In this document: one piece after another, positions 8,885 through 62,791 of the stretch | How the letters are laid out: each line of letters starts with the position of its first letter | Numbering within the stretch: position 1 is the stretch's first letter | Assembly: GCA_963771885.1 (NCBI GenBank) | Contig: CAVYVF010000023.1 | Span: 320,001 to 384,000 of the forward strand | Length of the DNA stretch: 64,000 bases | Source of the DNA: Candidatus Bathyarchaeota archaeon | GTDB taxonomy: Archaea > Thermoproteota > Bathyarchaeia > TCS64 | Direction: 5' to 3' | The notes under the pieces: model-generated | The model's input: the letters and a program-made list of their open reading frames with translations, nothing else | Databases searched by the model: none | Told to the model about the DNA's origin: nothing | Program-made: the position numbers and the translations under genes

Positions 8885-10049
8885 GAGTCAACAGCTTGCT
8901 CAGGCACTCGGGCGATCCTCTTCGGCGGCTTCCTAGCCCTCACCGTCCTCGCCATCATGAACTCCGCCTACAGCTACGTTTTAGGTTCCATCAAGGATGA
9001 GATGGCGCTAAGCTACACTGAGAGCGGGGCGCTTATGTCGGCGTACTTCAGTGGGTACACTGTAGGGCAGATCCCGTGGGGGCTCCTCGCAGATCGCTTT
9101 GGGAGCAAGCGTATTATGTCGGTGAGCGTTCTCGGCGTCTCCGCGGCGACGGTTCTCTTCGGCTTCGGAGACGACTTCCTCGGGCTGGCTGCGGCACGCT
9201 TCGCGGCGGGGCTTCTCGGGGCAGGCGTCTTCGTCCCGGCGGTTAGGCTTATCGCAGGGTGGTACGAGGCGCGTGAGAGGGGAACGGCGCTGGGCATTCT
9301 GAACATCGGCGGCAGCATCGGGCTAATAATTGTCACCTGGTCGTCGCCTCTACTCGCCCTCGCCTACGGGTGGAGGTTCTCAATAATAGTACAGGGCGCC
9401 GTAGGCGTGGCGGCGTCAGTGCCTAGTCTGGCTCAGCCTCAAGGACGGGACTCGGAGCGGCAAGGTCTCAGGCGGCGCCGTCGTCTCAGCGATGAAACGC
9501 GGTAGCTTCTGGGTGCTCGCCCTGTCCCAGTTCATACGCTTAGGTAGCTACTATACGTTCCTCGCCTGGCTCCCCCTTCTGCTCAAAGAAGACTACGGGT
9601 TAGATATGGTGCTCGTCGGCACCGCGATGAGCCTCTTCAACTTCGCTGGTATGGTGTCGAATCCCGCCGGTGGGATTCTCGCGGACTTCATCGGGGAGAA
9701 GAAGGTCCTCGCTGCCAGCTTCGTTCTTCTGTCTATGAACGTCTACGCCCTCACGGTGCTGCCGGATGGAACATGGATACTTGTAGCCTCCTTCCTGCTT
9801 GGGTGGCTGATCAACTTCGTCAGGAGCCCGGCTTTCACGATAATCCCGCGCTTATTTGGGGCTGAGACTGCGGGGAGCCTCTCAGGTTTCCACAACACTT
9901 TCGCGAGTCTCGGGGCACTTACATTGCCACTTGTTCTCGGGATAGTCAGAGATGCTACAGCGAGCTATGACATAGGCTGGTTTGCGCTGAGCACTCTTAT
10001 GCTCGTCGGCACAGGCCTGATAGCCGTCATTCGGGTTCCGGATAGCTGA
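8881..10049 (+). CDS. MFS transporter with two apparent +1 frameshifts (about 8909 and 9422)
   Basis: ATGA overlap with the upstream gene; GLLADRFGSKR and GILADFIGEKK motifs; fragments 8957-9505 and 9492-10049 join into one 12-TM protein. Confidence 0.8.
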
Positions 10050-26602: not shown

Positions 26603-28286
26603 TTAGACGCCTCCTAGGAGGATGTCCTTTAGCCCCATGCCCGGCGGGATCATAGGGTAGACGTTCTCCTCTGGGTCGATAGGGACCTCGATGACGGTCG
26701 TCTGCTTGTCTTTGATGCTCCTCTTTATGGCTGACTCTATCTGCTTCGTGGACTCTGCCTTGATACCTACGGCTCCGTAGGTCTCGGCGAGCTTGGCGAA
26801 GTCGGGGTGCTTCGGTCTCGTTATTGTGCTGTATCTGCGGTCGTAGAATAGGCGCTGCCACTGTGCGACCATGCCGAGGACGCCGTTGTTTAGTATGACG
26901 ACGGTTATGGGGAAACCCTCATCCACAGCGAGTGCGAGGTTGTTCTCCGTCATGGCGAAGCTGCCGTCGCCGCTGATGTTGAGGACGGGGAGGTCAGGGC
27001 GCGCTGCCTTGGCGCCGATGGCTGCTGGCGTCCCCCAGCCCATCGTACCGAGACCGCCACTTGTGAAGAACTCGCCGGCGCCGTGTACGTCGTAGTGCTG
27101 GGCCGCCCACATCTGGTGCTGGCCCACGTCGGTCACGACTATGCTCTTCGCGGGCATAGCTCTCCGTATCGCACGGATAACCTCTGGGCCAGAGAGTGGC
27201 GAGGTGTTGAGTGTGTTCGTCTGCGCCCGTAACTCAGCGATCCTCTTTATGAGCGCCTCGTCCTTCTTGCCGGTCTTCCTCTGCTGGGCGACCTTATCTC
27301 CTATCCCGCGTAGGGCGAGCCTTGCGTCGCCCGACTATCCTCGTGATGCTGTCGACGTTCTTGTCTATCTCACTCCTGTCGACGTCGACATGGATGATAC
27401 GAGCGTTCGGGGCGAAGCCCCTGAGCGAGCCGGTTGTGCGGTCGCTGAAGCGCGCGCCGACGACTAGGAGGACATCCGCCTCAGGGACCACATAATTCGC
27501 CTCGCAGCGCCCGTGCATCCCGCAGAGCCCGAGGCTGAGCGGGTGGTCGCTGGGTATGGCGCCCTTTCCCATGAGGCTGTGGGCTACGGGTGCCTGCAGC
27601 ATCTCGGCAAGCTCGATAAGCTCCGACGTTGCCCCTGCTGCGACGGCTCCTCCACCGGCGATGATGACGGGTCGGTGCGCCTTCGAAAGAAGCGTCGCGG
27701 CCCAGTGTATCTCCTGAGGGTTGGGCTCAGCGCTCGGGTGGTACCCGCGGAACTCGACCTTGTCCGGGAAGACCATCTCAGCCCTATCCGTCTGGGTGTC
27801 CTTTGGGATGTCGACTAGGACAGCGCCCTTCCTGCCGGTCGATGAGATGTGGAAGGCGGACTTGATCGCGTGCGGTATCTCCGCCGCCTCCATGACCTGT
27901 ATGTTGTGCTTAGTGACGGAGGCGGTGATGCCTATGATGTCGACCTCTTGGAAGGCGTCGGTTCCCACCATGCTGAGTGGGACCTGCCCCGTGAGGGCGA
28001 CGACGGGCGACGAGTCGAGCTGCGCCGTTGCGAGCCCAGTCACGATGTTGGTCGCGCCGGGTCCGCTGGTCACCTGCACGACGCCAGGTCTCCCGGAGAC
28101 GCGCGCGTAGCCGTCCGCCATGTGGGTGGAGCCCTGCTCGTGGACGCCGCCCACGTAGCGGATCTTCGACTTGAGCAGCTCGTCGCATATCGGGATAATA
28201 GCGGCGCCGGTTATACCGAACAGGTACTCGACGCCCTCCTTTTCAAGCGCCTTGACGTAAGCCTCGGCGCCAGTCATCTCAGGCAT
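26603..28286 (-). CDS. ilvB: Acetolactate synthase large subunit, copy 1; apparent +1 frameshift at about 27331
   Basis: HEQGSTHMADGYAR, TSGPGATN, DAFQEVD, DVGQHQMW, SGGLGTMG, GDGSF; removing one G from GTCGGGCGAC restores one ORF. Confidence 0.92.
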
Positions 28287-28481
28287 GCATGGAATCCTCC
28301 AGTTGTTGAATTTTCTAGGATCATTGATCCAGTTGTCTCTGACGGGAATCTAGGGACTAAGAATACGATTCCCCATTCAGCTCTCCCCCGCGCTCGGGGG
28401 CTCGACAAAGCAATACCCCATGTTCCATCCTCCCTTGCGGGATGTAAGCTAACCAAACTACGGATCGAATAAAAAGGTTTG
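28287..28481 (-). promoter_or_regulatory. Promoter and long structured 5' leader of ilvBH copy 1
   Basis: CAAACCTTTTTATTCG promoter, TACAT, two ATGGGGWATYGYWTT motifs 45 nt apart separated by a GC hairpin; same layout precedes ilvB copy 2. Confidence 0.7.
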
Positions 28482-48941: not shown

Positions 48942-50162
48942 CTACTTGAGGGAGTGATAGTCGAAGGGCTTCTTCGGGTCGGCGACAGGCGCCTCGACGG
49001 TGAAGAGGTCCGTGTACTTGAGGCCGGAGCCAGTGTTGAAGAGGACGACGCGCTCGTCCCTGTCGACGTGGCCCTGCTCAACCATCTTCCTGAGCGCCGA
49101 AATTGTTGCCGCGCCTTCTGGGCACGCGAATATTCCCTCAAGGCGGCTGATAAGGCGAACATCCGCTATCAACTCCTCATCGCTGACCGCTATCGCCTCG
49201 CCTCCGCTCTCCCGAACAGCCTTTAGGATGAGGAAGTCGCCTAGTGCCTTGGGGACGCGCAGCCCAGCGGCGACTGTATTCGCTCCGGTGAAGAACTCGC
49301 TCTCCTCCTTTCCCTCCTTGTACGCCTTGACAATTGGGCTGCAGCCCTCCGCCTGTACGCTTATCATGCGTGGGCGCTCGCCGCCTATCCAGCCCATCTC
49401 CTCGAGCTCGTCGAAGACCTTCCACATGCCGATGATGCCCGTGCCGCCGCCGGTGGGGTAGATGATGACATCTGGGAGCTTCCAGTCGAGCTGCTCTGCG
49501 ACCTCGAGGCCCATCGTCTTCTTTCCCTCGACCCTGTAGGGCTCACCGAGGGTGGCGACGCTGAACCAACCCATCTCGGGTATGCCGTCTTTAACGAGCT
49601 TGCCAGCGTCGCTGATGAGCCCCTTTACTAGGACGACCTTTGCGCCGACTACGTCGGACTCGACAGCGTTGACCTTGGGGGCGTCTTCGGGCATGAAGAC
49701 ATAGACCTCGAGGCCTGCGCGTGCGCCGTATGTAGCCATGGCGCCCGCTGCGTTGCCGGCGGAGGGAAGGGCGACGCGCTTCACGCCGAGCTCCTTCGCT
49801 TTACTGATCGCCGATGATAGGCCTCTCGCCTTGAAGCTGCCCGTCGGGATAATTCCCTCGTCCTTGACGAGCAGGTTCTTCAGACCGAGCGACTCGCCGA
49901 GCTTGGGCGTCGGCGTGAGGGGGGTCCAACCCTCGCCAAGGGTGACGACGTTCTCCGCCCTTCTAACGGGGAGTATCTCCCTGTACCTCCACATCGAGGC
50001 GACCCTACCCACCAGCTCACGCTTCGTGATCGTCTCCTTCGCCGCCTCAAGGTCGTACCTAGGAAAGAGCGGTTTCCCACACTTACTGCAGACCGTCTGC
50101 ACGACATCCGCGTCGTGGTGGGTGCAGCACTTCGAGCACTCTAGGTGTGTCATCTTACTCAA
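48942..50162 (-). CDS. thrC: Threonine synthase
   Basis: N-terminal CxxC/CxxC, TLGEGWTPL, PTGSFKARG, SAGNA, EGKKTM, PTGGG, NTGSGLKY. Confidence 0.88.
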   Translation of the reverse strand: MSKMTHLECSKCCTHHDADVVQTVCSKCGKPLFPRYDLEAAKETITKRELVGRVASMWRYREILPVRRAENVVTLGEGWTPLTPTPKLGESLGLKNLLVKDEGIIPTGSFKARGLSSAISKAKELGVKRVALPSAGNAAGAMATYGARAGLEVYVFMPEDAPKVNAVESDVVGAKVVLVKGLISDAGKLVKDGIPEMGWFSVATLGEPYRVEGKKTMGLEVAEQLDWKLPDVIIYPTGGGTGIIGMWKVFDELEEMGWIGGERPRMISVQAEGCSPIVKAYKEGKEESEFFTGANTVAAGLRVPKALGDFLILKAVRESGGEAIAVSDEELIADVRLISRLEGIFACPEGAATISALRKMVEQGHVDRDERVVLFNTGSGLKYTDLFTVEAPVADPKKPFDYHSLK

Positions 50163-50246
50163 CGGGGCTCAACCTACGTGTTACAGACGGTCCGCGGGGG
50201 TGTTAAGCGTAGCGCAGCGGCGTTGTGTGTACCGTGAATATTTTCA

Positions 50247-50483
50247 CAAACCTTTTATTCGGAGGTGCGGCTGTTCCCCCTACATACCGTTGGAGATTGG
50301 TGTTATGGGGTATCGCTTTATCATGGCCGCCGAGTGGAGGGTGGCGTAGATGGGGAATTGCTTTATTCGGTAGTTCAAGCCCAGCGAAGGACTCTCAAAT
50401 AGCGGTTTGGAAACGTTTCTCGACACAGGAACCATCCTCGACAGGGATGGGTTCCCGATACTATGCCTCGGAGGTGCAAGCGC
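50247..50483 (+). promoter_or_regulatory. Promoter and long structured 5' leader of ilvBHC
   Basis: CAAACCTTTTATTCG, TACAT, ATGGGGTATCGCTTT (50305) and ATGGGGAATTGCTTT (50350) with a GCCGCC/GGTGGC hairpin between; further hairpin at 50428-50456 before the SD. Confidence 0.7.
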
Positions 50484-52176
50484 TTGGTTGAGATGCCCGG
50501 TACTCGTGCCGTCGTAAGGTCACTCGAATTGGAGGGCGTCAAGCACCTCTTCGGGCTTCCAGGCGGCGTCGTAATCCCGCTTTGCGACGAGATGTTGAAG
50601 GCGGACTTCCGCTTCATACTCGCGCGCCATGAGCAGGGTGCGGCGCACATGGCGGACGGCTACGCGCGGGCCACTGGCGGCGTCGGCGTCTGCCTCGCGA
50701 CATCGGGGCCAGGCGCCACGAACCTCGTCACAGGCGTCGCGACTGCGAACATCGACTCAAGCGCAGTCGTCGCACTCACGGGGCAGGTCACACGCGCCAC
50801 GATTGGTACAGATGCCTTCCAGGAAGTCGACATCATCGGCTGCAGCGCCTCCGTCACCAAGTACAACATGCAGGTCAGGAAGGCGAGCGAGATTCCACGC
50901 GCCGTCAAGTCGGCTTTCCGCATCGCCTCGACGGGTCGCAGGGGCGCGGTGCTCCTCGACCTACCCAAGGACGTAACAACGGACGTCGAGGACATCGTCT
51001 TCCCCGAGAACGTTAAACTCAGGGGCTACCGCCCTAACCACCAACCCGACCCGCGTGAGGTCGAGTGGGCGTCGACGCTCCTCGCCAAGGCTCAGAGGCC
51101 GGTCGTCGTCGCGGGTGGAGGCGTGATCAACGCTGGGGCGACACGTGAACTGGTGGCTCTCAGCGAGTACCTAATGGCTCCGACGGCGACCACCCTCATG
51201 GGCAAGGGCGCGTTCCCCGCCGACCACCCGCTCAGCCTCGGGCTCTGCGGGATGCATGGAACTCAGGCGGCGAACAACCTCGTCCCCGAGGCGGACGTCC
51301 TCCTCATAGTGGGGGCACGCCTCAGCGACAGGACAACTGGCGCGGTGAAGAGCTTCGCCCCCAACGCCAAGGTCATACACCTCGACATCGACAAGAGCGA
51401 GATAGACAAGAACGTGGAGACGGTGACGCGCGTCGTCGGAGACGCTGCCCTCGGGCTCCGCGGGCTCCTCTACAACGTCAGCAAACTCCGCGCGCAGGGC
51501 GACGCGGGCGCACAGTGGAGCAAGAAGGTCTCCGAGTTCAGGTGCCAGGTCCAGCCAAACGGGAACGGGCACAAGTCCGGCTACCTGCGCGCCCCCGACG
51601 TAGTCAAGACCATCCGCAAGACGCTGCCCCGCGAGTCCGTCGTCACGACGGAGGTCGGGCAATGCCAGATGTGGGCGGCGCTACACTACGACGCATACGA
51701 CCCGCGCACGTTCTTCACAAGCGGTGGCCTCGGCACGATGGGCTGGGGCTTCCCCGCAGCAATCGGCGTCAAGGCTGCTCGCCCGGACGTACCCGTCCTC
51801 GACATCGCGGGCGACGGCAGCTTCGGCATGACCGAGAACAACATGGCAACCAGCATCGAGGAGGGGCTCCCCGTCATCGTCGTCGTGCTCAACAACCAGA
51901 TGCTCGGCATGGTCGCACAGTGGCAGCGCCTCTTCTTCGACCACCGCTACTCCGCGGTCAAGCTCAAGGGCAACCCCGACATGGTCAAGCTCGCTGAGGC
52001 GTACGGCGCCGAGGGAGTCAGGGTCGACACCCTCGAGGGGCTCGAGGCGGCGATACAGACGCGCTACGAAGAGCGACGTCTCAACCGTTATCGACGTCCC
52101 CATCGACCCGGAGGAGAACGTCTACCCAATAGTGCCGCCCGGCGCGGGGCTCAAAGACGCGCTACTGGAGGCATAA
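50484..52176 (+). CDS. ilvB: Acetolactate synthase large subunit, copy 2; apparent +1 frameshift at about 52056
   Basis: GLPGG, RHEQGAAHMADGYAR, TSGPGATN, EVGQCQMW, GDGSF; true C-terminus IDVPIDPEENVYPIVPPG in the shifted frame; SD GGAGGTG before TTG. Confidence 0.93.
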
Positions 52177-52179
52177 GAG

Positions 52180-52680
52180 ATGAGCGAGAGACACGTAGTC
52201 GCGTTCCTCGTCGAGAACAGGCCAGGGGTGCTATTCAACATAAGCAACCTGTTCCGGCGCAAGAACTTCAACATACACAGCATCACCGCCGGCACCGTCC
52301 TCGACGATGACACCGTGAGGATCACAATCGTCGTCCAGGCGGACGCCCACGGAGTCAACCAGGTAGTCGAGCAGCTCGACAAGATGGTCGACGTAGTTGA
52401 GGTCAAGCGACTCGACCCGCTCCGCACGGTCAACAGGGAACTGATGCTGGTCAAGCTCACTACAACTGACCCGATGGCACGGGAGGAGGCGCTCAAGTTG
52501 GTAAACGATTACCATGGGCTCATCCTGAACATCGAGCCGGACAACCTTATAGCCGAGGTCACTGGTGAGTCTGAGGATGTAGACGCCTTCCTCGAGGCAG
52601 TCAAGCCCATAGGGGTCGAGGAGGTCTCGAGGACAGGAGTGACAGCCGTCGAGAAGGGGCGGCTCAAGCTGGAGAAGTGA
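52180..52680 (+). CDS. ilvH: Acetolactate synthase small subunit, copy 2
   Basis: VENRPGVL...LFRRKNFNIHSI, QLDKMVDV, RELMLVK, SRTG. Confidence 0.93.
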   Translation: MSERHVVAFLVENRPGVLFNISNLFRRKNFNIHSITAGTVLDDDTVRITIVVQADAHGVNQVVEQLDKMVDVVEVKRLDPLRTVNRELMLVKLTTTDPMAREEALKLVNDYHGLILNIEPDNLIAEVTGESEDVDAFLEAVKPIGVEEVSRTGVTAVEKGRLKLEK

Positions 52681-53676
52681 ATGAATATGGTGAAGGTATA
52701 TCACGAGAAGGACATAGACGACAAAGTTCTGAAGGGCAAGACCGTCGCCGTCATCGGCTATGGAAGCCAGGGCAGGGCTCAAGCCCTTAACATGAAGGAC
52801 AGCGGGGTCGACGTCGTGGTCGGCCTCCGCCCCGGAGGTAAGAGTTGGAAGAAGGCCGAGGCTGACGGCGTCAAGGTGACGACAGTCCTCGAAGCGGCGC
52901 AGGAGGGCGACATCGTGCTGATGCTCGTCCCCGATATGGCGCAGCCGACCGTTTGGAAGGAGGAGGTCGCCCTCGCGATGAAGAAGGGTAAGACCCTCCA
53001 GTTTGCCCACGGCTTCAACATCCTCTACGGCGCCATCAAGCCGCCGAAGGACGTCGACGTCATCATGGTCGCGCCGAAGAGCCCAGGCGCCGAGCTGCGC
53101 CGCCAATACGAGGCGGGCTTCGGAGTGCCGGCGCTTGTCAGCGTCCAGCAGGACGCCTCGGGCAAGGCGCTACAGACAGCGCTTGCCATCGCTAAGGCGC
53201 TGGGGAGCGGAAAGGCGGGCGTCCTCGAGACCTCGTTCAAGGATGAGACCGAGGAGGACCTATTCGGCGAGCAAGCTGTCCTCTGCGGAGGCGCCGACCA
53301 GCTGATCAGGCGCGGTTTCAAGGTGCTCGTGGACGCCGGCTATCCACCGGAGCTCGCGTACTTCGAGGTCTGCAACGAGCTCAAGCTCATCGTCGACCTG
53401 ATCTATACATCGGGTATCGGTGGCATGTACCGTGCAGTCTCCGACACGGCGAAGTGGGGCGGACTCACTGTCGGCCCGGTGATCGTCGATGACCGCGTCG
53501 AGGAGAACATGAGGAAAGTGCTCAAGGACGTCCAGAGCGGCAAGTTCGCGAAGGCGTGGATGCAGGAGTACAAGGACGGCTCCAAGCACTTCAAAGCCCT
53601 CATGGATGAGGTCGACGGGCTCGAGATCGAGAAGGTTGGCAAGCAGATCAGGAAGATGAGCGGGCTCGAGAAGTAG
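52681..53676 (+). CDS. ilvC: Ketol-acid reductoisomerase
   Basis: IGYGSQGRAQALN, FAHGFNI, MVAPKSPG, ETEEDLFGEQAVLCGG, AYFE, SDTAKWG. Confidence 0.97.
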   Translation: MNMVKVYHEKDIDDKVLKGKTVAVIGYGSQGRAQALNMKDSGVDVVVGLRPGGKSWKKAEADGVKVTTVLEAAQEGDIVLMLVPDMAQPTVWKEEVALAMKKGKTLQFAHGFNILYGAIKPPKDVDVIMVAPKSPGAELRRQYEAGFGVPALVSVQQDASGKALQTALAIAKALGSGKAGVLETSFKDETEEDLFGEQAVLCGGADQLIRRGFKVLVDAGYPPELAYFEVCNELKLIVDLIYTSGIGGMYRAVSDTAKWGGLTVGPVIVDDRVEENMRKVLKDVQSGKFAKAWMQEYKDGSKHFKALMDEVDGLEIEKVGKQIRKMSGLEK

Positions 53677-57795: not shown

Positions 57796-58515
57796 ATGAC
57801 AGACGTCCTCGCACGCGTCAAGTGGGGCGCACCCGCGCTTAGCCTCCTCGCCGATGCTAAGCGGCTCGCGCCGGGGAAGCCGGCGATCATCCACATCCGC
57901 CACACAGAGCGCCCCGGGGTTACGGGGCCGAACAGCAACATGCTCCTCTCGACGCCGAACGGTAAAGCGGCCGCCATCGAGTTCGGCGAGAACTTGCCCG
58001 CGGAGAGGAGTTACCGTCTCTACTATACAGCCGTCAGCCGCTCAAAGGAGTCGGCGCAATCCATAATCGAGGGGATCAGGAGCAGCAATGGGAAAGCGGA
58101 GATCGTTGGTGAGTTCCCATTCCGCACATCATTCGACCCGCAGGCCCTCGATGACTATATTGACCGCGTGATTAAGAAGTGCGGGGACGAGGACGCCGCC
58201 GTGGCGGAGATGATGAACAGGTGGCTCTCGGGCCTCGCGCCGCCGGACGTGTTCCGCCCCAGCGACGAGTTCGCCAGGCTTGTCGCAGACTACGCCATCG
58301 CTCGCCTCGACACCGCGACGCCGGACACAGTCGACGTATATGTGACCCACGACACGTGGGTTGGTTCATGCCTCTTCCACTGGTTCGGGATACCGATGCC
58401 TCTGGACGGCGTCAGGTTCCTTGACGGCTACCTGCTGCAGCCCCTCGACAGGGAGATGGCTGTGTGGTTCAGGGGCAAGGCGATGAGGATTGAGTACCCC
58501 CACTGGTGGGCTTAG
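57796..58515 (+). CDS. Histidine phosphatase superfamily protein
   Basis: IRHTER, R-KESA and VTHD motifs. Confidence 0.75.
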   Translation: MTDVLARVKWGAPALSLLADAKRLAPGKPAIIHIRHTERPGVTGPNSNMLLSTPNGKAAAIEFGENLPAERSYRLYYTAVSRSKESAQSIIEGIRSSNGKAEIVGEFPFRTSFDPQALDDYIDRVIKKCGDEDAAVAEMMNRWLSGLAPPDVFRPSDEFARLVADYAIARLDTATPDTVDVYVTHDTWVGSCLFHWFGIPMPLDGVRFLDGYLLQPLDREMAVWFRGKAMRIEYPHWWA

Positions 58516-59261
58516 AGACCCTTCCTCAGCGCCTCGACGTCGGATGGCGGGTAGCCCGAGTAGAACTTGCTGAAGTAGCCGTAGGCGTCACGCCCCTCTC
58601 CGAGGTGTCTTTTCACCTTCCCCGCCCACTCGGCGGTCTCCGCCGCCTTGTCCACCTGCACCTCCCCCCTCTCGGCGACCACCGCCTTCCTATCTCCTTC
58701 CCAGCGGAAGTAGGCGAAGCCCGCCGTATCCACCTTGGGCGCCTCCGCCCTGTTTGTCGAGGCGAGGGCGACGCCGTGGTCGCGCAGCAGCTTGTACGTC
58801 TCCTCTGAGAACCAGCCCCGGTTCCTGAATTCGGCGGCGACCAGGCGCTTCCTCGGCAGGGCTTCGAGCAGGTCGTTGAGGGCTTTGTACTCGGGCTTGA
58901 GGAAGGGCGGGAACTGTAGGAGGAGTGGCCCCAGCTTGTTGCCCATCACCTCCATGTGGCGGAGGAAGACGTAGAGCCTCTCAGCGTCGTATCTGAGGCC
59001 GGGAACATGAGTCACGGTCTGGGGGAACTTGGCTGCGAACCTGAACTCCTCGGGTACCGAGTCTCTCCACGCCTCGATGGTGAAGACGCTTGGTATCCTG
59101 TAGAACGTGGCGTCTATCTCGACCGAGTTCATAGTCTTCGCGTACTCGGCGAGGTACCTCGTCGGCTTCGTGCCTTCGGGGTAGAGTTTGCCTACCCAGA
59201 ACCTGTAGCTCCACCCCATCGTGCCGAGGTAGGCTACTCCCGGCGCTTGAAGAGGAGCCAG
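58512..59261 (-). CDS. DUF72 domain protein (first ATG 59219; frame extends to CTG 59261)
   Basis: YLGTMGWSY--W, SVEIDATFYRIP, FAAKFP, LGPLLLQFPP, EFRNRGW. Confidence 0.9.
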   Translation of the reverse strand: MAPLQAPGVAYLGTMGWSYRFWVGKLYPEGTKPTRYLAEYAKTMNSVEIDATFYRIPSVFTIEAWRDSVPEEFRFAAKFPQTVTHVPGLRYDAERLYVFLRHMEVMGNKLGPLLLQFPPFLKPEYKALNDLLEALPRKRLVAAEFRNRGWFSEETYKLLRDHGVALASTNRAEAPKVDTAGFAYFRWEGDRKAVVAERGEVQVDKAAETAEWAGKVKRHLGEGRDAYGYFSKFYSGYPPSDVEALRKGL

Positions 59262-60625
59262 TTCTTCTCACCAGCCTTAGTGAAGTGGACGAGCTCGTAG
59301 CCGCCCCTGAGACGCTCCCCGTGGATGACTATGGAGACCTTCTCCGGCGTCCACTCGACGGTCTCGTAGGTGCCCCTGTCCCAAATCTTGACGGTGCCCG
59401 CACCGTACTCACCCTTCGGGATCTCTCCCTCGAAGCCACCATAGTCTAGGGGGTGATCCTCCACAGCGACGGCGAGGCGCCTCTCCCCCGACTTCTCGGG
59501 CGGCCCCTTCGGCACCGCCCAGCTCTTCAGCGCACCGTCCCGCTCCAACCTGAAGTCCCAGTGCAGGTGGCTCGCGTGGTGCTCCTGGACGACATACATG
59601 TTTCCCTTCAGTTTCGTGCCTTCGCCGACGGGCTCGGGGCTCTTCGAGAAGTTCCTCTTAGAATTGTACTCTTCGAGGGTCAAGGGCTTCACCTGCGATA
59701 GTGTGCAGTCGCGGGGGGTTTTATCGGTTCTCAGTCTGATGAACCGGGGGGCACGCAGGCGGTCGTCGTCGGTTAGGTTCTGGTAACCGACCTCGGCGAC
59801 GACGCTTGGTTTGAGCCATGTGGAGTACGCGGGGATGTCTGGGGCGTCGACCTGTTTCTCCTGCGTCTCGTATGGGCGGAAGGCGGCGATCAACTCGCGG
59901 AGCTTCTTCTCAGTGAAACCCGTACCCACCCTGCCAACGAAGGTCAGCTTATCCCCTTCGTAGAGCCCGAGTAGCAGCGCCCCGAAGGAGTCCGCCCTGT
60001 TACCCGTCCCCCTCGTGTAACCAACGACGACGCAGTCCGCCGTCTTCACCCTCTTCACCTTTAGCCATTCCTTGCTCCTCTCCCCCGGGCGGTAGAGGCT
60101 GCGTAGCTTCTTAGCGACGACGCCTTCTAGCCCTTTCGCGGCGGCCGCCTCGTAGTAGGCCTCCCCCTTCTCCTCGACGTAGCTTGAGACGACGACATGC
60201 TCCCCGTCCCGGAGCGATTCTCTGAGTATCTTCTTACGCTCGTTCAGTGGCTTCGAGGTTAGGGGTTTTCCGTCCTTTTCGAGTATGTCGAAGACGACGT
60301 ATGTGCTCGGCGTCTCCCTTGCCTCCCTTTCTATGTCGCGGGGCTTGGACGCCTGCACCCGCTTAGCGACCGCTTGGAAATCAGGGCGCCCGCCCTTCAT
60401 GACGATAATCTCGCCGTCGACGACGACGTTCGACGCCAGCTTGGTGAGCTCGGCGAGTTCGGGAAACTTCATCGTGATGTCGTTGTCATTCCTACTAAGT
60501 ATCTGTAGTTTCTCGCCGATGTGGGCTATGGCGCGTATGCCGTCCCACTTTACCTCGAAGAGCCATCCACCCCGGCTAAAGGGGGCGTCGGCGGGCTCCG
60601 CGAGCATCGGCTGGTACTTCATCAC
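59234..60625 (-). CDS. ligD: LigD-type ATP-dependent DNA ligase fused to a C-terminal 3'-phosphoesterase domain
   Basis: Ligase motifs EVKWDG, DGEI, FDIL, EGVVAK, WLKVK and OB domain; PE motifs VQEHHASHLHWDFRLE, KSWAVPKGP, EDHPLDY, YGAG-V-IWD-G. Confidence 0.93.
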   Translation of the reverse strand: MMKYQPMLAEPADAPFSRGGWLFEVKWDGIRAIAHIGEKLQILSRNDNDITMKFPELAELTKLASNVVVDGEIIVMKGGRPDFQAVAKRVQASKPRDIEREARETPSTYVVFDILEKDGKPLTSKPLNERKKILRESLRDGEHVVVSSYVEEKGEAYYEAAAAKGLEGVVAKKLRSLYRPGERSKEWLKVKRVKTADCVVVGYTRGTGNRADSFGALLLGLYEGDKLTFVGRVGTGFTEKKLRELIAAFRPYETQEKQVDAPDIPAYSTWLKPSVVAEVGYQNLTDDDRLRAPRFIRLRTDKTPRDCTLSQVKPLTLEEYNSKRNFSKSPEPVGEGTKLKGNMYVVQEHHASHLHWDFRLERDGALKSWAVPKGPPEKSGERRLAVAVEDHPLDYGGFEGEIPKGEYGAGTVKIWDRGTYETVEWTPEKVSIVIHGERLRGGYELVHFTKAGEKNWLLFKRRE

Positions 60626-61416
60626 TTCTTCATCTGCGCCAGTGTCTGCTCTAAGGCTACCATCAGTTCCTTGACCTCCTCCTTCTTCTCGGGTTTTTCG
60701 ACGTGGATAGTCTCGCCTTTGAGCTTCTTCTTGATCAGCTTCTCAACGTTCTCGCGGTAGGTGTCCTTGTACTCGGTTATGTCGAATTCGCCAGTAAGGT
60801 TATCAAGTATCTTGTAGGCGAGCTCCAGTTCCTTCTTGCTCGGCTGCTTCAGCTCCTTCAGGTCCTTGACCGTCATCGGCTCTATGACCTCGTTTGGGTA
60901 GCGTAGCGTCGTGAGTATGAGGGCGCCTTTGTAGCTGTGTATAAGGACGGGGTACTCCTTCGTACGCATTGTGTAGCGCCCCACCCCCGCCATGCCTTTC
61001 TTCTCCAAAGCTGAGTAGAGGAGCCCGTAGGCGTCCACGCTCTTGTCGGGGCCGAGGATGTAACTGCTAAGGAAGTAGAGGGGATCGACGCCCAAGTACT
61101 GGACGAACTTGTCAATCTTAATGCGGCGGTCGGACTCGGGGCGTATGGCGTCGAGCTCCTCCTTCGTGAAGGTGACGAACTCCCCCTTCTCAACCTCGTA
61201 GCCGCGTGCCACGTCCGACCATTCCACGACCTCGTTGTCGTAGGTGCAGACCCTCTGGTACCTCAGCGGACACCCGTCCTTCTTACGTAGGAAGTGGAAG
61301 CTGTAGCTCTTGTCCCTGATCATCGTGTATAGCTTCACGGGCACGTTCACGAGCCCGATGCTTATCATGCCACTCCAAAAGCTCCGTCCGGCTGGCGCCT
61401 GCTCCTCATCGCTCAA
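60622..61416 (-). CDS. ku: Ku DNA end-binding protein
   Basis: RSFWSGMISIGLVNVPVKLY, RGYE, IDKFV, DPLYFLSSY, LTTLRYPNEV, EYKDTY, LMVALEQ; TTG start below an AAAAGGTTAAA promoter. Confidence 0.95.
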   Translation of the reverse strand: MSDEEQAPAGRSFWSGMISIGLVNVPVKLYTMIRDKSYSFHFLRKKDGCPLRYQRVCTYDNEVVEWSDVARGYEVEKGEFVTFTKEELDAIRPESDRRIKIDKFVQYLGVDPLYFLSSYILGPDKSVDAYGLLYSALEKKGMAGVGRYTMRTKEYPVLIHSYKGALILTTLRYPNEVIEPMTVKDLKELKQPSKKELELAYKILDNLTGEFDITEYKDTYRENVEKLIKKKLKGETIHVEKPEKKEEVKELMVALEQTLAQMKK

Positions 61417-61460
61417 TGGTAACCCCGGTTTGAACCTCGGAAGCCATGAGTTTAACCTTT

Positions 61461-61673
61461 TCACACAATGAAACTGAATAGGGTATTTGTCCGCCCCATC
61501 GCGAATGAGAAGATTACGAGCCCAGAGAGTATTATTGCGACTACATCCATCAGTGTCTGGTACCTCGCGTCTAACTTGCTGAACCACCGCCACCAGATGA
61601 ACCAGGAGAAGACAAACGCTAGCAACACGAAGATCGAAATGTCGCTAACGTCGATGAATATTGTGTCACTCAC
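61461..61673 (-). CDS. Small two-TM membrane protein
   Basis: 70-aa ORF with two hydrophobic segments; AT-richer than its neighbours. Confidence 0.5.
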   Translation of the reverse strand: MSDTIFIDVSDISIFVLLAFVFSWFIWWRWFSKLDARYQTLMDVVAIILSGLVIFSFAMGRTNTLFSFIV

Positions 61674-61921
61674 CGGGTGTCAAGCTGGTTCTTAGAACTC
61701 GCCGCTTTAACGGTTTTCTTTGCTTTGGGAAATTATTGGGTGTGTTATTTGGGATGGGTTATCAGCCGCCGTTCACTCGGACCTCTGAAGGCGTGGAAGC
61801 GTGAAGAAGCCGACGAAGGAGCAACTGAAGAAGGGATGCGTCATCTGCGTGAAGTTGATGACGGGTGACTATCACGGCGCGGTCATTGACCTTAGCCACG
61901 ATGCAGGCTTCTTTGACAAGC

Positions 61922-62791
61922 TCATGAGGATGCCTTGGATTCGCGGCTCTTCCACTTCTTAGAAGCCCAGAAGTCCTTCCAGTGGTCCTGCCTCTCCGGG
62001 ACGTTCTTCAGAGTGAATCTTATGGGATCGAGGTCGTCTAGCTCCTCCCACGTGATGGGTGTTGAAACAGTCGCCGATGGCGTTGCTCTAAGGCTGTAGG
62101 GGCACGCCATCGTCCGCCCCCTCCCGTTCTGCGGGTAGTCTATGTAGATCGTCCCCGGCTTCTTCTGCCCCTTTTCAGAGGAGACTATGCCCGTCTCCTT
62201 TGCGAGCTCCACTCCGACGCTGTGGGCGTATGCGCGGGTCGCCTCGTAGGTCTCGCTGCGGTCGAGGCGGGCGACGACGTGGAGCCCCCTCTTCCCCGAG
62301 GTCTTCACACACGCCTCGAAACCCCTATCCTTTAGCTTACCTCTGATGAGGCGTGCCACCTTGACCATCTCTGGGATGCCCGCGGGGGGCTGAGGGTCGA
62401 GGTCGAAGAGCACCATGTCGGGGTGATCAGGTTTATCGATCCTCGCTAGGGGGATGTGAAGCTCAAGTGCTGCGAGGTTCGCGAGCCAGATGAGTGTGTC
62501 GAGGTCGTCGCAGATAATGTAGTCGAGCTCCCTCCCCGCCGCCTCGGAATAGGTATGATGGAGGCGGACCCAGTCCGGCGTCCCCTGAGGCGCGTCCTTC
62601 CCGTAGAAGCCCTCCGTCTCGACTCCGTCGGGGTAACGCGTCACAACAAGCGCCCGCTCCTCGAGGAAGGGCAGCATCCTAGGCGCAACGATGATGTAGT
62701 ACTTCACGATGTCGAGCTTTCTCACCTCCGCGGCGGGGTAGAGGACCTTGTCTAAGTTAGAGAACTGGACCTTGGTGAGCTTCTCCATCAA
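61922..62791 (-). CDS. ligD: LigD polymerase (PrimPol/AEP) domain, stand-alone
   Basis: SNLDKVLYP, RYPDG, ANLAALELH, FDLDP, KTSGKRGLHV, IDYPQNGRGRT--CPYSLR, VSTPITWEEL. Confidence 0.93.
   Translation of the reverse strand: MMEKLTKVQFSNLDKVLYPAAEVRKLDIVKYYIIVAPRMLPFLEERALVVTRYPDGVETEGFYGKDAPQGTPDWVRLHHTYSEAAGRELDYIICDDLDTLIWLANLAALELHIPLARIDKPDHPDMVLFDLDPQPPAGIPEMVKVARLIRGKLKDRGFEACVKTSGKRGLHVVARLDRSETYEATRAYAHSVGVELAKETGIVSSEKGQKKPGTIYIDYPQNGRGRTMACPYSLRATPSATVSTPITWEELDDLDPIRFTLKNVPERQDHWKDFWASKKWKSRESKASS

Follow-up and report, generated by a model that had tools for sequence, protein, structure and literature searches.

In bacteria, tRNA charging controls amino acid biosynthesis genes and tRNA synthetase genes by way of the ilv and leu attenuators and the T-boxes. 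The bacterial prfB gene, for release factor 2, regulates itself by a +1 frameshift at a cassette whose internal Shine-Dalgarno (SD) sequence stands at short spacing. The layout of prfB, with its short ORF, is treated in passages of PMC5009743, as are the ermC leader (ketolide-induced) and pheL, in which ribosomes that have shifted translate across the leader spacer, so that the gene behind it is switched on; according to the same passages no starvation-specific functional product of hungry-codon frameshifting was known as of 2016. For archaea, the pertinent section of a 2021 review (PMC8211752) lists a single chromosomal frameshift, with direction -1, and PMC3711429, going by its extract, used 2010 genomes. 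In a search of full-text literature, mostly outside subscription papers, we found no report of an element like the one described here.

The element was met in a 64,000-nt stretch of archaeal DNA (the window, with positions counted from its first letter), where it occurs in two leaders (Table 1). Copy 2 is flanked by a divergent threonine synthase gene on one side and an ilvB-ilvN-ilvC operon on the other, and copy 1 precedes a second ilvB-ilvN (28286-26107, minus strand; both NCBIfam). A preliminary description had reported two motif starts in copy 2 (50305 and 50350, 45 nt apart), a 14-aa ORF abutting MGNCFIR* with a 14-aa counterpart in copy 1, +1 frames reading WGIALS...WGI in both copies and a hairpin (GCCGCC/GGTGGC); all of these were reproduced, and the hairpin folds as claimed. 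The translation of uORF1 is MGYRFIMAAEWRVA, with MGNCFIR (uORF2) directly after, and in copy 1 (28421, minus) the 0 frame reads as the 14-aa ORF and then MGNRILSP*. The promoter-to-TACAT offset, said to be the same in the two copies, is 33 vs 34 nt from the start of AAACCTTTT and equal when counted from the end of the T-run. What had gone unseen was that the +1 frame reaches the ilvB start (in copy 2 the bridge stop TGA, 50489-50491, overlaps the start TTG at 50484 in -8 geometry; in copy 1 the bridge ends in an ATGA overlap with the second ilvB), and that cassettes also stand before the threonine dehydratase gene and valS. A second strong hairpin is found at 50428-50455, within the +1 bridge of copy 2. 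Each ilvB copy has a one-base frame break, one near 27330 and the other near 52050. Errors of assembly are the probable cause, since a relative of 99% identity (L294) shows no interruption at the first of them. An MFS gene (8957-10049) is likewise split. NHEJ clusters are uncommon in archaea, and the window holds one (Ku, LigD ligase and polymerase domains; 58512-62791, minus).

Table 1. Features of the two ilvB leaders (window coordinates)
Feature	Position	Strand	Basis
BRE/TATA-like promoter element	50248..50259	+	sequence; presumed promoter function
Shine-Dalgarno-like bases GGAG, GGTG for cassette 1 AUG	50292..50302	+	
Cassette 1: AUG, SD-like GGGGUAUC within it, UUU at 50317-50319 as proposed slip codon, Ile AUC at 50320-50322 as sensor	50305..50322	+	
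0-frame uORF1, 14 aa, stop abutting cassette 2 AUG	50305..50349	+	
GC hairpin, 3 nt past sensor codon, spanning SD-like bases of cassette 2	50326..50345	+	
Cassette 2 (Ile AUU, 50365-50367) and 0-frame uORF2, 7 aa	50350..50373	+	
+1-frame bridge ORF common to both cassettes	50318..50491	+	
ilvB SD GGAGGTG	50470..50476	+	sequence; genome's 16S 3' end
ilvB-ilvN-ilvC operon, downstream of copy 2 leader, proposed target	50484..53676	+	NCBIfam
Copy 1 leader: Val cassette (28421-28404), hairpin, Leu cassette AUU-CUU (28376-28359), +1 bridge	28274..28421	-	

The cassette measures 18 nt and reads AUG-GGG-WAU-YGY-UUU followed by codon 6; as a rule its 0 frame meets a stop within 6-14 codons. Seven copies of the form AUG-GGG-WAU-YGY-NUU-codon 6 are present in this genome at four loci, namely both ilvB genes, the threonine dehydratase gene (NCBIfam) and valS. 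All seven were recovered in a motif-blind scan of the genome (26 candidates out of 906), in which no further candidate had a NUU slip codon and no cassette for another amino acid appeared; the upstream regions of leuS and ileS carry no cassette, and a candidate at C22:117041 turned out to be an ordinary gene start. Conservation beyond the window was clear: 74 of 79 genomes of the order carry the cassette, against 2 matches of a reversed control pattern. In the class, which record titles identify as Bathyarchaeia, 178 of 401 genomes have it, patchily by family, although these and all other cassette and layout counts overstate independence because the genomes share ancestry. Among the matches listed in a GTDB-wide scan, 71 of 80 titles are Bathyarchaeia or its older or lower names. 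Of 18 matches examined beyond the class, nine were chance matches; nine of nine loci there, from four families, have true cassettes before cimA. One bacterium-titled record (L065) has a typical cassette with cimA and is possibly mis-binned. At three loci (L340 and L341 in G392, L344 in G330) a cimA-type promoter and an Ile cassette precede genes unrelated to branched-chain amino acids, which may be recent duplications or new targets. The deepest-branching cassette (L204, G226:C153) has a longer uORF and a near-canonical internal SD before UUU-AUU. An exact protein look-up gave no match. We conclude that the cassette is a real, widespread and apparently undescribed regulatory element.

Codon 6 follows the gene behind it, a match that, like the cassette itself and the frame layout, emerges from comparison among sequences. 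The set comprised 294 distinct matches, 289 of which were assigned to genes by BLAST. Codon 6 was AUY (Ile) in 158/158 cassettes before a LeuA/CimA-family gene (probably citramalate synthase) and in 6/6 before threonine dehydratase, and GUY (Val) in 28/28 before valS; before ilvB, often in tandem, it was AUY in 41, GUY in 39 and CUY in 17. Several of the searches restricted codon 6, and in the one that left it free it was still AUY, GUY or CUC at 110 of 111 loci. One locus has three cassettes, for Val, Leu and Ile. Acetolactate synthase serves isoleucine, valine and leucine, and CimA and IlvA feed isoleucine, so that the match between codon 6 and gene fits the pathway. In this genome the only leuA operon lacks a cassette and the Ile cassettes sit on the dehydratase gene instead; the matching tRNAs are present. 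CimA and IlvA are named as the two entries to isoleucine in an excerpt of PMC12131731.

Before cimA the 0 frame stops after 6-16 residues, whereas the coding sequence of the enzyme continues straight out of the cassette in +1. This is the layout of a regulatory +1 frameshift of the prfB/antizyme class, with a short 0-frame ORF and a functional product only in +1. It was seen at 30/30 class loci, and a frame-free scan gave offset +1 in 116 of 120 among the matches listed, at least one of the 116 being a chance match. A cassette-blind sample of 30 family loci contained 10 with cassette and +1 layout and 20 ordinary in-frame paralogs; those 10 were all the CimA-type clade members among the 30. 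When 56 proteins were placed in a tree, all 33 with cassettes fell on one side of a single branch (100/98). This separate clade lacks the N/D-x-P-DTVG motif of the in-frame paralogs, and HMMs do not separate the two. The target is named citramalate synthase by JGI and isopropylmalate synthase by NCBI, and our full-text literature search yielded no paper on CimA/LeuA specificity; the target is likely to be citramalate synthase CimA. A third in-frame LeuA-family paralog (L181-L184, L201), with a longer M-(A/V)-W N-terminus, forms its own branch. At 72 of 123 cimA loci no ATG, GTG or TTG occurs in the coding frame near the site; at the other 51 there is some in-frame ATG, GTG or TTG nearby, at unconserved places, which counts against a slip. 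The starts of 120 database entries scatter widely and 13 begin past the catalytic DTT motif, meaning that cimA N-termini of this lineage are mis-called in databases.

At ilvB, ilvA and valS the +1 frame serves as a bridge across the 64-166 nt gap from cassette to gene. In 82 of 83 leaders no stop interrupts it before the last 20 nt ahead of the gene (shuffles expect 20.2); frames 0 and +2 stay open in none of the 83, and the one exception (L230) also has a damaged second cassette. In 73 of 83 the bridge ends in a -4 or -8 stop/start overlap, the overlap or few-base gap expected for coupling; spacings of -4, -1 and -8 are typical of coupled genes according to a portion of PMC12548453. Since the bridges vary in length and sequence, it is translation that appears to be kept and not a peptide, and a conserved leader peptide was rejected in both frames. 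The earlier proposal of selection on an RNA element or leader peptide thus holds for the element and fails for the peptide, and of the mechanisms it offered translational coupling is supported, while attenuation and an RNA-binding protein are not. Attenuation in particular is at odds with a single sensor codon in place of a run. A check of U tracts, the part of a terminator that was covered, gave TTTT in only 12 of 52 ilvB gaps, in 0 of 3 ilvA gaps and in 19 of 28 valS gaps, so that a terminator/antiterminator pair seems improbable at ilvB. A BRE/TATA-like element similar to that of copy 2 is found 40-55 nt upstream of most first cassettes, and an SD-like word (permissive word list) 3-16 nt upstream of 227 of 237 first or single cassettes. 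The valS leaders (e.g. G000:C23 near 869470 minus, L009, L028, L219) contain a conserved GCGGAC and then a TATA-like hexamer, often with a complementary GTCCGC before the SD; this might form a long stem, or be a promoter inside the leader that provides valS with a basal level of expression.

What is informative is codon 6 together with the +1 frame. Both point to a switch of frame, a reading absent from the preliminary description. We hold a codon-6-dependent switch into the +1 frame to be highly probable and a one-base +1 slip at UUU to be its probable route; the slip, its dependence on tRNA charging and the activation of the gene by the bridge are what we infer from the layout. A ribosome would start at the cassette AUG and move on until its P site holds codon 5 (UUU) paired with tRNA-Phe and its A site the sensor codon. 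When charged Ile, Val or Leu tRNA is plentiful, reading would continue to the stop a few codons later and the gene would be off. When it is scarce, the ribosome would wait, the P-site tRNA would re-pair one base on (UUU to UUA/UUG, or AUU to UUC in most Leu cassettes, with two pairs each) and translation would proceed in +1. For cimA the shift would make the enzyme directly, and for ilvB, ilvA and valS the +1 ribosome would reach the stop overlapping the gene start and reinitiate there by coupling. Translation of the bridge possibly also shields the RNA from termination by FttA, which is present in the genome; shielding by ribosomes is put forward as a hypothesis in a passage of PMC11616081.

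The slip codon has the properties of a conserved P-site codon able to re-pair at +1, in that NUU is fixed, if with two of three pairs only. Its third base allowed 3 non-U matches in 71 genomes, none of them UUC, vs 21 control matches, UUU is a minor Phe codon here (12% of Phe codons), and 12 of 17 Leu cassettes use AUU as codon 5. Bases 1-9 of the cassette pair with the 16S end of the genome (mean -7.5 kcal/mol vs -4.8 for a downstream control); the variants GGUGA and AGGGAU keep this pairing and UUU-AUY and change the peptide, and GUG replaces AUG in some variants. A point against the slip is that a prfB-like short internal SD spacing was not found: 5-6 nt separate the SD-like bases from the slip codon, so they may not push the ribosome. 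Changes at position 17 are silent in the 0 frame (123/123). Changes at positions 3-11 are silent in +1 at a rate close to that in 0 (55 and 40 of 104), which counts against a slip, and the slip also leaves G10 and the pyrimidine at 11 unexplained. The main rival starts from this region and gives the same regulatory logic: a ribosome stalled at codon 6 would drop its peptidyl-tRNA, or split, and restart in +1 at a weak AUU, AUC or AUA at positions 7-9. We consider this unlikely; it is nonetheless a real rival, because AUH stands at positions 7-9 in 111 of 123 cimA cassettes. Some weak start occurs at positions 4-10 in 119 of 123, position 9 is never G and position 10 nearly always G, and five database entries begin there (MAL...). 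Restarting leaves without a start the 4 of 123 cimA cassettes that lack a weak one, has SD-like bases overlapping the weak start codon, and does not account for the fixed UU at 13-14 or for AUU at codon 5 of the Leu cassettes.

Another way into +1 would be a hop over the hungry codon to a later +1-frame UUU or UUC, or a shift that takes place before codon 5 (GGG to GGN). A +1-frame Phe codon does stand ahead of the DTT motif in cimA, and the variation at positions 6 and 9 is of the kind seen at wobble positions of the +1 frame. Both forms are nevertheless improbable. The +1 frame is stop-free from the cassette onward, with changes at positions 18-48 most often silent in +1 (1480 vs 825 and 969 of 3638), which speaks against a hop; the variants GGU-GAG and GAA-GGU could not re-pair at codon 2, and with an early shift codon 6 would not be sensed. 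Transcriptional slippage at GGGG or UUU(U), by which a deleted base would fuse the frames, is barely plausible: short runs do exist, but they are of 3-4 nt only, and a polymerase cannot read the amino acid supply. RNA-library contigs of two studies, moreover, span 50307-50842 and 50311-50461 without gaps (50100-50304 is uncovered) and are weak evidence, since contigs drop rare variants, that the leader and ilvB are transcribed unedited.

Tandem arrays would extend the +1 slip to more than one amino acid. Cassettes are spaced by 42 or 45 nt in 48/48 cases, with 0 nt (38 cases) or 3 nt (9 cases) between the 0-frame stop and the AUG of the next cassette, so that unshifted ribosomes would terminate on the next AUG and be tested a second time; shortage of either amino acid would then turn ilvB on, as in an OR gate. 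A hairpin of at least the strength of -8 kcal/mol (<= -8) is found behind codon 6 in 44 of the 45 ilvB cassettes that have a successor and in 23 of 28 valS cassettes, compared with only 4 of 52 last ilvB and 2 of 158 cimA cassettes. Its absence from 156 of 158 citramalate synthase cassettes excludes it as a required stimulator, and, being absent from nearly all last ilvB cassettes as well, it is best seen as accessory. It might hide the SD of cassette 2 until a ribosome arrives, or add a pause. In 33 distinct rows 81% of the cells are paired, more than in shuffles or in slid controls. There is modest covariation, with 3 pairs that differ in both bases, a number reached by 48 of 500 shuffles; the arms are homopolymers and the loop is variable. 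Taken over its full length (50281-50520), the leader has no fold better than that of shuffles (z -0.22). Pro-Pro stalling in uORF1 was rejected, as the copy in the window keeps the hairpin without prolines. The conserved, largely paired hairpin, together with a set of biosynthesis genes and a tRNA synthetase gene that resembles T-box regulons, would suit an RNA-level switch (a tRNA-binding, T-box-like element, an RNA-binding protein or a classical attenuator) with codon 6 as specifier and the frames incidental. We regard such a switch as very improbable, because the hairpin is missing from cimA and last cassettes, and out-of-frame cimA and bridges that end at gene starts are left unaccounted for. 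Nor did Rfam provide a known family, a possibility raised in the preliminary description: scored against the gathering threshold of its covariance models, the window gave only a tRNA, and 50150-50550 two chance hits (E 0.8 and 3.1).

Taken as a +1 slip, the element would be a previously undescribed way of sensing amino acids in a large group of archaea from sediments, upstream of genes for isoleucine, valine and leucine synthesis or tRNA loading, and an 18-nt cassette that changes specificity by one codon. This bears on whether cells use starvation-induced frameshifting on purpose and on how archaea tie amino acid genes to tRNA charging. On balance we favour a frameshift cassette that is portable and programmed by its codon, and through which the ribosome would respond to how well a single tRNA is charged. 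Most Bathyarchaeia, and some other Thermoproteota, would depend on it to make CimA at all, and in front of the enzyme that the pathways share, two or three of them would act together as an OR gate. In the literature searched, no earlier +1 frameshift on an archaeal chromosome, and no earlier case of hungry-codon frameshifting under selection, came to light.

The regulon logic is that of the bacterial ilv and leu attenuators and T-boxes, but with one sensor codon, apparently no terminator/antiterminator or specifier stem, and a change of frame as the proposed output. As in the hungry-codon frameshifting of Gallant, shortage of aminoacyl-tRNA would provoke the slip, whereas the cassette looks selected and gene-specific. 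The influenza PA-X type site UCC_UUU_CGU and the E. coli UUU_Ynn sites, as given in the relevant lines of PMC5009743, also have UUU in the P site and then a slow codon; those re-pair on UUC/UUU, the cassette mostly on UUA/UUG, and the site in the cassette appears regulatory. The shift in pheL is judged incidental in the same lines, unlike that proposed here, and ermC has a drug as trigger where the cassette would have an amino acid, with a bridge that ends in coupling geometry. With prfB the cassette shares the short 0-frame ORF, internal SD-like bases, a U-rich P-site codon, a slow A-site sensor and the product in +1; it would differ in having as sensor a sense codon read by charged tRNA and not a stop, in its SD spacing of 5-6 nt, in being archaeal and in being used as one cassette across a regulon with swapped codons. 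By analogy, the cassette would work like prfB with a sense-codon sensor and, in its bridge form, like the ermC leader, as a member of neither.
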